Source: Candidatus Thorarchaeota archaeon (lineage in GTDB: Archaea; Asgardarchaeota; Thorarchaeia; Thorarchaeales; Thorarchaeaceae). Taken from it: a DNA stretch of 29,148 bases. Both the position numbers and the translations under genes were made by a program. Numbering within the stretch: position 1 is the stretch's first letter; each line of letters begins with the position of its first letter. Location of the stretch: the NCBI GenBank assembly GCA_016933575.1, contig JAFGAR010000192.1, positions 1-29,148 on the forward strand, read 5' to 3'. The notes under the pieces were generated by a model that saw only the letters and a program-made list of their open reading frames with translations, was not told where the DNA came from and did no database searches. Below, piece after piece: positions 4,027-8,343 of the stretch.

Positions 4027-6126
4027 CTAACAGTTCGAAGTTATATAGACATACCAACCCATAGCATCTGGAGTTGGATCTGAACAAACATAACCAAATC
4101 CTTTTGCATGATCATTGATAGGATCATCTAATTGAGGTTGGAAAGGATTTGTTGAGTTCGTCCCATAGAACACAGCAACTATCTTATCAGAGTTCTGATG
4201 TATATAGCCTGCTTTAAACCAGGATTCCACGATTGTAAGAGCAGGAAGCGGATATAGTCCTGTCATTTGCAGAGCGAATTCCATCCCCATACTTGGAGTA
4301 TTCTTAGCACTCGTTGCGAATCCACAGATTTGGTGTACTCCCTGAAGAACAGGACCCCAAAGTGACCACAAAGACCCACATGGACCATAGAGGGGCATAA
4401 CATCGCACGATTCCATAGCCAGAGTTTCGAGGTCCCCATCACCCAGTTTCAAATCAGAGAAATAGAGGTATTCATCATCATGTTCAGATGTGAAAGTAAT
4501 CGAACAAGGATTGCCATGTCCTTTGTAGAAGACGATATCTACTGCATCAATCCACTCAGAGTCATTACCATTGAATTCAGTTGCTCGAAAGTCTGTTTCC
4601 CATGCATTCCATTCACCCCAGTTGAATTCCTGACTATATCCCCCAGTAGTTGCCATATGGTGGTAGAACTTACCTGCATCAATTGGGGAATTCCAGAGGG
4701 GTGAGTCATCATAGGAATTACCCACCCATTCTACACCTACTTCCTTTGTGTCATCATCGAAAGCTCCTGTTGGGGCTCTTGGTCTAAATTCATTCGTGAC
4801 ATCATCTTGACTGTATGCAGAAGTGATCGGAAGGAACATGAAAGCCGAAAATATGAGAAATAGAAAGGGCACAACAAGGAAACCTTTCTTCTTCACGAGT
4901 ATAAGAAACACTACCAGAAGAGCTATTGAACCAAGTGCGATAATCACAATGTTTGGGTCAATACTCGCAACTGCGGTTGAATCAATTGTAACAGCAACGA
5001 GGTCATAGCATTCCATTTTGTTAGCATCCTGAACAGTCAGTATTATTGGATGAGGAATGATTGTGTTCTCCTTGATTACTTCGGAGAGACTAGTAGTTGT
5101 GAAGTTCTCAGAGTAACTTAGGACTCCATCATGCGGAGAGTACCATTGATATTTATACGGAGGAGTTCCAAACTGTGCTATACAGTCAAATGTAATTGGC
5201 TCTCCAGGTTGTTTTATGATAGGACCTGAGGGTTGAATAATTCCAGTATAAGGTTGAAACTCAGTTGCAGCAAACTCTAGATTGTATTCGATAACATACC
5301 CATCATTTGTTTCTGTGAGTGTTACATCGTAGACAGGATAGAGAAGGTCATTGTTGGAATCTTCTTCACCAGTTTTATACATCAGACTGTAAGTAACCAC
5401 AGAATCAGAGGGAATACCATATGTTTCTAATATCGAATCAAATTCGATGAGTACAGCAGTTGAATAGGGAGTTGGATTTATGTCTCTCCATTTCCAATTA
5501 AATCCAACGACATTCTGAGCTGGACCAGAAACTTCTCCTGCTTCACCAATGACTACCTTTATTCCTGCACTCGATTCTGCAATTGGAATATCATTATCTG
5601 GAATCACAAAATTGTAATTAAAATGATAATTGAGTAGCTTTGAGTGTGTTACGTGCGTGTCAACGTTATATATCGTCATATTGGTTGTTCCAAGTACACC
5701 AACAAAATCTGCATTGGCAGGAACTAGACCCTTCTCATCTAACCAAGATTCTGCCATTTCTTGACATTCAGTAGCATTGGGAAGTGCATCACCCGAAGAG
5801 ACATTCCAAAGTCGATCATAATCAGCGAACCATATCGACCCATCCGATGAGTCAACCTCAAGATAGCTATTACTCCAGTTGACGAAGTAGATACCCTCGG
5901 TCACTTGAGCGACTAGATCATGTAGACCAAAGAGTGAGGATGCTAGACTCTGCACATATGATTCATTAACTTCAGGAGTCACTAATTCATAGATGGGCAT
6001 CTCCGTATGAGATAGTACAAACTTCATTGGTTCAAAGTCAATAGTATTTTCTTGCATTCTGTTTTGGTCGCTAGCTGAGATAACCAATAAGAATAGGAAG
6101 AAAACAAAGATTAGATCCTTTTGCAA
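4027..6126 (-). CDS. Membrane-anchored multidomain protein, paralog A: propeptide-like domain + PKD-like domain + 2 TM + clan CD peptidase-like (DUF6345-type) domain
   Basis: Likely start is TTG at 6126, with GGAGG 7 nt upstream, then a signal peptide. PKD-like ITFDCIAQFGTPPYKYQW; two TM helices; IVFYKGHG...LAMESC His/Cys motifs. Clear paralog of 6280-8343. Confidence 0.8.
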   Translation of the reverse strand: MQKDLIFVFFLFLLVISASDQNRMQENTIDFEPMKFVLSHTEMPIYELVTPEVNESYVQSLASSLFGLHDLVAQVTEGIYFVNWSNSYLEVDSSDGSIWFADYDRLWNVSSGDALPNATECQEMAESWLDEKGLVPANADFVGVLGTTNMTIYNVDTHVTHSKLLNYHFNYNFVIPDNDIPIAESSAGIKVVIGEAGEVSGPAQNVVGFNWKWRDINPTPYSTAVLIEFDSILETYGIPSDSVVTYSLMYKTGEEDSNNDLLYPVYDVTLTETNDGYVIEYNLEFAATEFQPYTGIIQPSGPIIKQPGEPITFDCIAQFGTPPYKYQWYSPHDGVLSYSENFTTTSLSEVIKENTIIPHPIILTVQDANKMECYDLVAVTIDSTAVASIDPNIVIIALGSIALLVVFLILVKKKGFLVVPFLFLIFSAFMFLPITSAYSQDDVTNEFRPRAPTGAFDDDTKEVGVEWVGNSYDDSPLWNSPIDAGKFYHHMATTGGYSQEFNWGEWNAWETDFRATEFNGNDSEWIDAVDIVFYKGHGNPCSITFTSEHDDEYLYFSDLKLGDGDLETLAMESCDVMPLYGPCGSLWSLWGPVLQGVHQICGFATSAKNTPSMGMEFALQMTGLYPLPALTIVESWFKAGYIHQNSDKIVAVFYGTNSTNPFQPQLDDPINDHAKGFGYVCSDPTPDAMGWYVYITSNC

Positions 6127-6245
6127 ATTTATGCCTCCCAAGGTACTCTCACACGCAGCCCTATTCATTAAAGAATAGTAGATTTTTCTATTGATACCTT
6201 TGCATAAAAATCTCCCCAAAATTCCCTTCGCCGTTTAGGAAGAAT

Positions 6246-6278
6246 AATACAAGAAGGGGAATCTCCCCTTCCTGTATT
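6246..6278 (-). terminator. Hairpin terminator after paralog B
   Basis: GAAGGGGA-ATC-TCCCCTTC perfect 8-bp stem extended by AATACA/TGTATT. It lies immediately after the stop at 6280 and is followed by a T-rich tract on the minus strand. Confidence 0.65.
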
Positions 6279-6279
6279 T

Positions 6280-8343
6280 CTAGCAACTACTCACAATGTA
6301 GACATAATAGAGGAACTCTCCTGGTTTGGGATCTGAACAGACATATCCAAATCCGTAGGCATGGTCATTTATCGGATCGTCCAATTGCGGAGTATAGGGA
6401 TTCGAAGACTTTGTAGCATAGAACACAGCAGAGGTGTGGTCACTAGGCTCAGTTTCCTCACATGCTCTGAACCATGCACTTACAATGGTCATCCCTAAAT
6501 CGGTCATATATGTAGCAAAGTTAGTTCCTCTAGTTGCAGAGTTCTTACTACTAGTTCCAAAGGAGCAGACCTGATGGATACCTCGCATTGCAGGAGCCCA
6601 TCTTTGAAAGACATCATGACCAGTAGAGTTTTGCCAAGCAAGAGGACTACAGGCATCAAAGACAATGGAGTCAAGGTCACCATCACCCAATCGCATGTGC
6701 CAGTAGTTGAGACCATGGTCATCATGGTTCGAGGTGAAGGACACTGAATCGGGTCCTCCATGATCTTGATAGTAAACGAAATCAACTGCATCGATCCATT
6801 GTGTATCAGTCCCGCTGAATTGGGCATCTTTAAAGTCCTCTTCCCAAGCAGAATACTCGCCCCAGTTGAATTCGCGGCTAAATCCTCCTGTTGTACCCAT
6901 TTTATTATACCAACCTTCGATATTTGTTTCCGTCCACCAGAGAGGATGATTATGTGACAGACCAACCCACTCAATACCTATCTCTTTTACACCGTCATCA
7001 TAAGCACCTGTAGGAGCACTAGGTATGAACACAGGTGCATTGCTTACCTCTGTACTAGCTGTAGTAATTGGTAAGAATAAGAATGCGGAGAACATCATAA
7101 CTAGGAAGAAAAGAATTGGTACAATCTTTCTTCTTCGGAATACAATCAATGAAAGTAAAAGCACACCGACCGCACCTGCAGCAATGAAGGTTAGTGTTAT
7201 GTCAGGATTGAAGTCGCCAGGTTCGATGGTGACTTTAACGACGTCACTACATGCGCGGTTCTCAGCATCCCGAACTCTAATCGCAATCGCATGAGGTACA
7301 TGTGTGTCCATCTTTATTACTTCTGAGAGGAATGATGTTGAGAATGATTTTGCAGTGCTAAGTATACCGTCATGGTCGGATGACCATTCATAGGTGTAGG
7401 GTGGTGTTCCAAATTGAACTTGGCAATCGAATGTTATAGTTTCTCCAGGAATAGCCACATATGCACCGGACGGGGTGATAATCTCAACTTTTGGATCAAA
7501 TAGGGTTGCATCTATCTGAACAAAATGGTGAATAGGTAACTCTGTATCGTCTGCAGGTTCTATGAATTCAATCTCCCAGACGGGGAAGAGAAATTTGGCT
7601 TCCTCAGGATTATCATCAATAGTATATGCTAACCGATGACTAATTACATTGCTAGGTGAAATTCCATGAGTTTCGAGAATTGATTCATATTCGATCATTT
7701 CCAATTTTGTATATGGTTCTGGTCTAGGCGCTCTCCATTTCCAGTCGAATCCTACTCTATCACCGCCCTCTCCTATCATGACGCAGATCTGAGCAGCATC
7801 ACCAGAAACAGGGATATCACCAATGGTAAACTCATAATTGACATTGTACTGAAGAATCTTCGAAAGAGTTCTATCTAAATCAATATTATACGTTGTAACA
7901 TTTGTTGAACCGATATTCGCTAGGCTAGCTCCCTCTGGGAGGATCCCATTATCAGTAAGCCAATCATAGGCATAGCGTTCAGCGGCTACTGGAGTGAGTG
8001 TCCCTATTCCTAGAGAAATATTCCAGATTTTACTGTAATCAGCAAACCACATTGAGCCATCTCTCTTATCAATCTCAAAAGACTCTGAACCTCTGTTGAT
8101 GAAGAACGCATCATCACCTTCCTCAGCAGGGGTATCACGAATAGCAAAAAGAGAGTAGGCAAGGGATTCGGCATATGTGTCATTCACGACAGGAGTTATC
8201 AACTCGTAAATTGGAAGCTCCGTTTCGGACAAAACATATTCAGGTTTTACAATGCTGATGGTCGTGGTAGTATTTGGTGTTTCAGTTTGAAATCCTGCAA
8301 GTATAAAAATTAGCAATAATACGAACACTAGATTTCGATCCAA
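6280..8343 (-). CDS. Membrane-anchored multidomain protein, paralog B: propeptide-like domain + PKD-like domain + 2 TM + clan CD peptidase-like (DUF6345-type) domain
   Basis: Start TTG 8343 (MDRNLVF aligns with MQKDLIF of paralog A; alternative start 8352). ITFDCQVQFGTPPYTYEW; FVYYQDHG...IVFDAC motifs. Same architecture as paralog A. Confidence 0.8.
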   Translation of the reverse strand: MDRNLVFVLLLIFILAGFQTETPNTTTTISIVKPEYVLSETELPIYELITPVVNDTYAESLAYSLFAIRDTPAEEGDDAFFINRGSESFEIDKRDGSMWFADYSKIWNISLGIGTLTPVAAERYAYDWLTDNGILPEGASLANIGSTNVTTYNIDLDRTLSKILQYNVNYEFTIGDIPVSGDAAQICVMIGEGGDRVGFDWKWRAPRPEPYTKLEMIEYESILETHGISPSNVISHRLAYTIDDNPEEAKFLFPVWEIEFIEPADDTELPIHHFVQIDATLFDPKVEIITPSGAYVAIPGETITFDCQVQFGTPPYTYEWSSDHDGILSTAKSFSTSFLSEVIKMDTHVPHAIAIRVRDAENRACSDVVKVTIEPGDFNPDITLTFIAAGAVGVLLLSLIVFRRRKIVPILFFLVMMFSAFLFLPITTASTEVSNAPVFIPSAPTGAYDDGVKEIGIEWVGLSHNHPLWWTETNIEGWYNKMGTTGGFSREFNWGEYSAWEEDFKDAQFSGTDTQWIDAVDFVYYQDHGGPDSVSFTSNHDDHGLNYWHMRLGDGDLDSIVFDACSPLAWQNSTGHDVFQRWAPAMRGIHQVCSFGTSSKNSATRGTNFATYMTDLGMTIVSAWFRACEETEPSDHTSAVFYATKSSNPYTPQLDDPINDHAYGFGYVCSDPKPGEFLYYVYIVSSC

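Follow-up and report, generated by a model that had tools for sequence, protein, structure and literature searches.

The DNA analysed in this study is a stretch of 29,148 nucleotides (nt) from a Candidatus Thorarchaeota archaeon (contig JAFGAR010000192.1, positions 1 to 29,148; hereafter the window). Region 4027-8352 is filled by two open reading frames (ORFs), both located on the minus strand, which we designated genes A and B (Table 1). Their products are paralogs (45% identity across 678 aligned residues, i.e. over the full length) with a common module order: (i) a signal or anchor segment, (ii) an N-domain of approx. 255 amino acids (aa), (iii) an Ig/PKD-like module, (iv) a hairpin of two predicted transmembrane (TM) helices, and (v) a C-terminal DUF6345 domain. 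The last of these is probably a caspase-fold cysteine peptidase, and the N-domain is predicted to dock on its active-site face. An initial annotation of this DNA had described a tandem pair of surface proteins in an Asgard archaeon, each with a caspase/gingipain-like protease domain fused to a propeptide-like domain. The pair and the quoted motifs are present, with a His-to-Cys spacing of 37 residues in both proteins, and since the homologs carry Thorarchaeota names, the Asgard attribution fits.

Table 1. Features of the tandem DUF6345 locus. Positions are those of the window; residue numbers of A and B, here and in the text, were counted on the longest-ORF products P0001 and P0002, respectively.
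Feature	Position	Strand	Residues	Remarks
Gene A	6280..8343	-	687 aa	From TTG 8343 (likely start); longest ORF to 8352 (690 aa, P0001)
Gene A N-domain	7498..8265	-	30-285	YycH/YycI/YpeB- and FTP-PepSY-like (predicted fold)
Gene A Ig/PKD-like module	7219..7497	-	286-378	Motif G-T-P-P-Y-x-Y-x-W
Gene A TM hairpin (predicted)	7057..7206	-	383-432	TM1, RRRK loop, signal-peptide-like TM2 ending in small residues
Gene A DUF6345 domain	6283..7029	-	442-690	His531 at 6760-6762, Cys568 at 6649-6651
Hairpin directly after gene A stop	6246..6278	-		15-bp stem, 3-nt loop
Promoter-like motif upstream of gene B	6204..6220	-		GGGGAGA, then TTTTTAT
Gene B	4027..6168	-	713 aa	From ATG 6168 (most likely start); longest ORF to 6219 (730 aa, P0002)
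Gene B N-domain	5257..6048	-	58-321	Match to the alignment A2 profile (E 3.4e-114) and hidden Markov model match
Gene B TM hairpin (predicted)	4816..4974	-	416-468	KKKG loop
Gene B DUF6345 domain	4030..4791	-	477-730	His568 at 4516-4518, Cys605 at 4405-4407
Second hairpin, downstream of gene B	3933..3970	-		Between B and the convergent gene 2086-3921

Translation of gene A is likely to start at the TTG codon, as the initial annotation had it, because the resulting N-terminus (M-D-R-N-L-V-F) fits those of the homologs (M-N-R-N-I-V-F) better than the one obtained from position 8352, and because an AGGGGTG motif is located 10 nt upstream. In the case of gene B, the ATG codon is the most likely start, since the longest ORF, which reaches further in the 5′ direction, runs across a promoter-like motif that is conserved. 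This motif (GGGGAGA-TTTTTAT), which in related genomes also precedes the downstream members of the arrays, may represent a TATA/BRE element. The hairpin noticed earlier between the two genes is real (fold of -22.8 kcal/mol, z = -5.45), and its core sequence recurs 3′ of array members in four related loci. The second hairpin, downstream of gene B, folds with -23.6 kcal/mol (z = -5.40). The same punctuation is shared by the window (6204-6278) and the arrays of related genomes (L039, L040 and L041): the hairpin core AGGAAGGGGA-nnn-TCCCCTTCTT follows each stop codon directly, and the promoter-like motif precedes the next gene. Some of the array hairpin stems from related genomes differ at paired positions.

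DUF6345 (PF19872), the Pfam family named in the initial annotation, was found in both C-termini with scores of 179.9 bits (A) and 156.6 bits (B) against a cut-off of 26.9; the matches covered 218-219 of the 221 profile positions and were confirmed on the genome. Neither protein gave a Pfam match to C14 or a Pfam or NCBIfam match to any named peptidase, and the NCBIfam scan of both returned nothing.

A structural model of the C-domain, generated with AlphaFold2 (AF2) on an alignment of 40 C-domains (alignment A1), had a mean predicted local distance difference test (pLDDT) score of 82 and a predicted template modelling score (pTM) of 0.86. When this model was compared with known structures using Foldseek, caspases and SAVED-CHAT were recovered with E-values of approx. 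1e-5 to 1e-4 (caspase-11, 3e-5), while alignment with VIA-align gave Z-scores of 14.4 for SAVED-CHAT, 12.9 for RgpB and approx. 12 for caspase-7, caspase-8, legumain and metacaspase-9. A wide VIA search of 48,161 representative PDB chains, independent of Foldseek, revealed 34 chains with Z of at least 8, nearly all of which are caspase-hemoglobinase fold (clan CD) proteins. These were led by CHAT (13.9), metacaspase-4 (12.8), OaAEP1 (12.1), Kgp (12.0), legumain (11.7), RgpB (11.5) and caspases (approx. 11), and PIG-K, MALT1, separase and C11 were also among the matches. The structural neighbours in the ESM Atlas were DUF6345 (template modelling score 0.86), followed by Peptidase_C25 (0.62) and CHAT (0.61). 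These comparisons point to the clan CD fold that had been proposed for this domain. Clan CD includes caspases, metacaspases, legumain, separase, gingipains and the GPI transamidase.

The arrangement of the putative catalytic residues agrees with this assignment. In the model, in which His92 and Cys129 correspond to His531 and Cys568 of protein A, the strand comprising residues 86-90 (strand 3) is followed by His92-Gly93, and the strand comprising residues 123-129 (strand 4) ends at Cys129, so that His and Cys sit after consecutive strands. This is the dyad layout of clan CD peptidases that was originally recognized from the motifs, and it is conserved family-wide. Both residues are invariant in all 110 full-length homologs. 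We extended the comparison to 155 representatives of clusters of at most 50% identity, which stem from the 1,414 hits of a profile search. Of these distant sequences, 150 of 151 have the His and 150 of 152 the Cys. A second histidine, His593, was kept in 151 of 153, and Asp521, Asp524, Asp506 and Glu504 were conserved alongside the dyad. The different specificities suggested for A and B in the initial annotation would depend on the residue two positions before Cys. Here A has Asp and B has Glu, a conservative change, and 100 of the 110 homologs have Asp. We take this acidic position to be that of the S1 determinant in caspases and metacaspases; by analogy, basic P1 residues might be preferred, which is offered only as a lead. 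Taken with the fold, these data suggest that the C-domain is probably a clan-CD-type, caspase-fold cysteine peptidase.

The N-domain had been likened to FTP/PepSY-type propeptides, and its AF2 model (alignment A2; pLDDT 89.5) bears out this resemblance. The model matched (i) 5coz (Foldseek E 3.9e-6, VIA Z 13.1), (ii) the C-terminal domain of YpeB (E 2e-6, Z 12.9), (iii) YycH (E 6.9e-7 and 4.3e-4, Z 11.9 and 11.3), (iv) YycI (E 3e-7, Z 10.7), (v) the propeptide of fungalysin (M36; 4k90, E 1.6e-3, Z 8.6), and (vi) the propeptide of the vibriolysin MCP-02 (M4; 3nqy/3nqz, E 7e-4, Z 7.2-7.3), after which the Z-scores dropped to approx. 5. The N-domain gave no Pfam match, and for the PepSY, FTP, YycH and YycI models this held in the N-domains of the window even at E-values of up to 5.

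Analysis of the DUF6345 family revealed that the two modules occur together in several arrangements. The N-domain profile matched 48 of 153 DUF6345 representatives. Besides the form with the TM hairpin, we found fusions in the same order that lack it (P0188 and P0272) and fusions in the reverse order, with the N-domain-like part at the C-terminus (P0176, P0287 and P0249). Moreover, five of six stand-alone DUF6345 genes, from archaea and bacteria (Arcve_1775 of Archaeoglobus veneficus is one of the five), had, within approx. 20 nt downstream, a gene whose product matches the N-domain profile. These split partners aligned with the profile in hhalign with probabilities of 96.4-98.9% (E 1e-9 to 3e-17), and the best Pfam matches among them, both sub-threshold, were to YycI (19.1 bits, cut-off 29.7, E 0.001) and FTP (13.8 bits, cut-off 21, E 0.053). 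In the sixth case (L044), the downstream gene, which runs to the end of the contig, had no match to the partner profile. One of the partner genes that follow a stand-alone DUF6345 gene (L045:3815-5404) encodes a protein of 529 aa, in which a VWA_2 domain is located ahead of the N-domain-like part (residues 311-503). Within the genome that contains the window (3.47 Mb, 85.5% complete), A and B are the only genes with either module.

The prediction of a complex between the N-domain and the C-domain yielded an ipSAE of 0.92, compared with 0.01 for the best control; 58 of 80 solved complexes, but also 2 of 110 mismatched pairs, attained the mark applied to this score. Three runs shared at least 90% of the contacts, with a partner pLDDT of at least 89. 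On the side of the C-domain, the predicted interface comprises residues 92-97 (His92-Ser97), 129-130 (Cys129-Ser130) and 241-251, which places His and Cys in a single patch. The strongest predicted contacts are formed by the C-terminal strand of the enzyme (241-251), which pairs with residues 120-127 of the partner. The predicted binding, with the dyad inside the interface, is consistent with the self-regulated enzyme envisaged in the initial annotation.

Two internal hydrophobic helices, absent from the earlier description, separate the Ig-like module from the C-domain. A hydropathy scan identified three hydrophobic segments per protein, one N-terminal and two internal, and these, together with the charged loop between the internal pair, are kept in nearly all of the 110 homologs; the net charge of the loop is +3 or +4 in 109 of them and +2 in the remaining one. 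The second internal helix ends with L-P-(I/V)-x-x-A-x-S, and is therein similar to a signal peptide. By the positive-inside rule, the N-domain, the Ig-like module and the C-domain would all be extracellular and joined by the helical hairpin: the chain would exit the cell, go back via TM1, and exit again via the signal-peptide-like TM2, leaving both modules outside. The chain may also be cleaved after TM2. The Ig/PKD-like module itself gave sub-threshold Pfam matches to Ig_3 (24.4 bits, cut-off 30) and the SprB repeat (16 bits, cut-off 28), and in the relative P0192 the equivalent position is occupied by clear Ig and PKD repeats. Two pairs of DUF6345 and partner genes (L038:5001-6576 and L046:604-2212) encode products without an N-terminal hydrophobic segment, and these may be cytoplasmic versions of the module. 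The first pair is located near genes for Phage_T4_gp19-like tube proteins and a radical SAM gene.

We propose that A and B are latent surface cysteine peptidases of the clan CD type, each with a dedicated keeper domain over its active-site face, and we assign this reading a probability of about 0.6. The DUF6345 module would act as a cysteine peptidase by means of its conserved dyad, in which His follows strand 3 and Cys terminates strand 4. The YycI/PepSY-like N-domain would be its dedicated partner, which docks on the His/Cys face and pairs one of its strands with the C-terminal strand of the enzyme. In this way the partner would keep the enzyme at the cell surface, probably in a latent state until it is itself displaced or cut. 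The analysis shows the fold, the conservation of the dyad, the fold of the partner, the co-occurrence of the modules in several arrangements and a predicted interface, whereas catalysis, inhibition, topology and any cleavage after TM2 are inferred.

Several observations weigh against this proposal. At the sequence level, hhalign comparison of 155 DUF6345 domains with 18 Asgard Peptidase_C14 domains gave a probability of 32%; the 41 aligned columns cover helix 1 and strand 2 and stop short of the dyad. The global mode was meaningless, and the sequence profiles gave no clear link between the two families. PDB sequence-profile searches with both domains returned nothing credible, and our literature search found no paper describing the DUF6345 family or enzymatic data, the only trace being one line in a proteome table of Tannerella forsythia vesicles. 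The ipSAE score is the predictor's own confidence, obtained on alignments built in this analysis. Furthermore, the interface positions are no more conserved than the rest, and those of the C-domain are more variable (1.53 vs 1.02 bits); this variability lends no support to the docking, though surfaces generally vary more than cores. Two of the split pairs lack signal peptides, and the module is therefore not always extracellular. Finally, a partner that is encoded by a separate gene or located at the C-terminus does not fit a classical cleaved propeptide.

This last point also bears on the term propeptide used in the initial annotation. The fold and the predicted docking on the active-site side speak for it, but the term is too narrow, because the partner can also be encoded by a gene of its own downstream of the enzyme or follow the enzyme in the same chain, which gives it the look of a lasting partner or keeper rather than of a classical N-terminal propeptide. 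The same arrangements argue for the main rival explanation, in which the DUF6345 domain is active and the partner, instead of being an inhibitor, is a permanent subunit with a structural, anchoring or substrate-recognition role in a constitutive two-module complex. The strand-strand pairing between the C-terminal strand of the enzyme and residues 120-127 of the partner looks like a stable assembly, and the closest folds, YycH and YycI, are those of regulators, not propeptides. However, an interface that takes in His92-Ser97 and Cys129-Ser130 would limit the access of substrates, and the partner fold also matches the truly inhibitory propeptides of the M4 and M36 families. We consider a permanent subunit rather unlikely.

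Another alternative concerns the chemistry of the enzyme. The domain could be mainly a transpeptidase or transamidase (a legumain-type ligase or a PIG-K-like enzyme) that processes surface proteins or attaches them. Among the structures that resemble it are those of the ligase OaAEP1 and of PIG-K (Z 10.7 and 9.1), and the enzyme would be tethered to the outside of the membrane, if the topology suggested above is right. Nevertheless, ligases and hydrolases cannot be told apart by their Z-scores (those of CHAT, metacaspases and gingipains are as high or higher), a conserved neighbouring substrate or pathway gene was not seen, and the family is also represented by soluble secreted and apparently cytoplasmic pairs, all of which makes this alternative improbable. 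A related and even more doubtful scenario is that signal peptidase cuts TM2, thus generating a non-covalent two-subunit surface machine, in which a free caspase-fold enzyme is docked on a membrane-anchored keeper with an Ig stalk. Such a machine would serve regulated processing or transpeptidation of surface proteins, as opposed to degradation; if it existed, the lineage closest to eukaryotes would have an archaeal counterpart of legumain- or PIG-K-type chemistry. Least probable is a non-catalytic pseudo-enzyme for binding or scaffolding, similar to c-FLIP or the caspase-like domain of Raptor: a fold alone is no proof of catalysis, and pseudo-caspases are among the structural matches (c-FLIP, Z 8.8; Raptor, Z 7.8), but the retention of the dyad in approx. 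99% of the 155 distant representatives, together with that of His593, is hard to explain without chemistry.

Comparison of the proposed latent peptidase with known systems revealed both similarities and differences. The DUF6345 domain shares with clan CD peptidases (CHAT, the metacaspases and caspases of C14, legumain of C13, the gingipains of C25 and clostripain of C11) the fold (Z 11-14), the order of His before Cys, and the location of His-Gly after strand 3 and of Cys at the end of strand 4; its x-D-H-G and D-A-C motifs resemble those of legumain and metacaspases. It differs from these enzymes in having no clear sequence-profile link to C14, in possessing an extra C-terminal strand (243-250) and a beta-hairpin in place of caspase helix 3, and in carrying a conserved cluster of acidic residues and a further invariant histidine (His593). 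Both C-domains clearly belong to PF19872, for which Pfam gives no function. In the Thorarchaeota form, the domain is preceded in the same chain by the partner, the Ig-like module and the TM hairpin.

The gingipain zymogen (complex of RgpB with its prodomain; PDB 4ief) embodies the same idea, as there a clan CD domain (Z 12.9) of a secreted surface protease is covered by an N-terminal domain of its own chain; in the case of A and B such covering is predicted. Unlike in the gingipains, the partner is of the YycI/PepSY type (no gingipain prodomain was among the N-domain matches), and it is also encoded by separate genes and found in the reversed order. FTP-PepSY propeptides and YycH, YycI and YpeB resemble the N-domain in their fold and association with hydrolases and, according to its predicted topology, in their extracytoplasmic location, whereas the N-domain is paired with a caspase-fold cysteine enzyme and not with a metallopeptidase or a histidine kinase. 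What is specific to the locus is (i) the partner-first fusion with an Ig-like stalk, (ii) the TM hairpin, which contains an internal signal-peptide-like helix, and (iii) the conservation of the paralogs as a tandem that is punctuated by hairpins and promoter-like motifs.

If the proposal is correct, clan CD would be extended by a further widespread family, controlled by a domain of the YycI/PepSY type, which had so far been linked to metalloproteases and to regulators of kinases. Asgard archaea would possess a predicted surface-exposed caspase-fold enzyme of patchy distribution, kept as old tandem paralogs, and the A and B proteins become candidates for a role in cell-surface remodelling or in the release of nutrient peptides.

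The DUF6345 profile search identified 1,414 representative clusters from archaea and bacteria. Full-length relatives of A and B carry Thorarchaeota names, and a few those of Promethearchaeota and Sifarchaeia. PF19872 was detected in 29 of the 301 genomes searched in the phylum and in 17 of the 25 from the genus of the window, and its genes often form tandem arrays of two or three. Orthologs of gene B in these relatives have up to 82% identity, and the duplication that gave rise to A and B therefore predates their divergence. Short DUF6345 forms recovered in word-based searches were mostly fragments; one of them, P0131 (252 aa), clusters with a protein of 677 aa and is probably a cut gene call.

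The neighbours of genes A and B are unrelated housekeeping or hydrolase genes, and no conserved operon partner was seen. In the comparison made for such partners, only the GH3 and GNAT neighbours were syntenic in a relative. The gene convergent with B (2086-3921, plus strand) encodes a protein of 611 aa, in which an N-terminal alpha/beta-hydrolase domain (weak matches to S33-, S15- and S9-type peptidases) is joined to a C-terminal half that is long and very hydrophobic. Two genes upstream of A, beyond a gene of the glyoxalase family, a gene on the minus strand (8942-10006) encodes a protein of 354 aa with a multi-helix hydrophobic N-terminal half and a soluble C-terminal part; this protein has no Pfam match. 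Region 11857-15289 (plus strand) codes for a NosD/right-handed beta-helix protein and, after it, for a GH3 glycosidase that carries an Fn3-like tail; the genes for GH3, GNAT, CysRS and LarA are syntenic with a DUF6345 locus of a relative (L034). An iron-uptake cluster is located at 23678-27411 (plus strand). In this cluster, FeoA is followed by two overlapping ORFs that share FeoB between them: the first (24112-24933) encodes its GTPase part and the second (24930-26249) its membrane Gate/FeoB_C part. The cluster also includes an iron-dependent repressor at 27007-27411.

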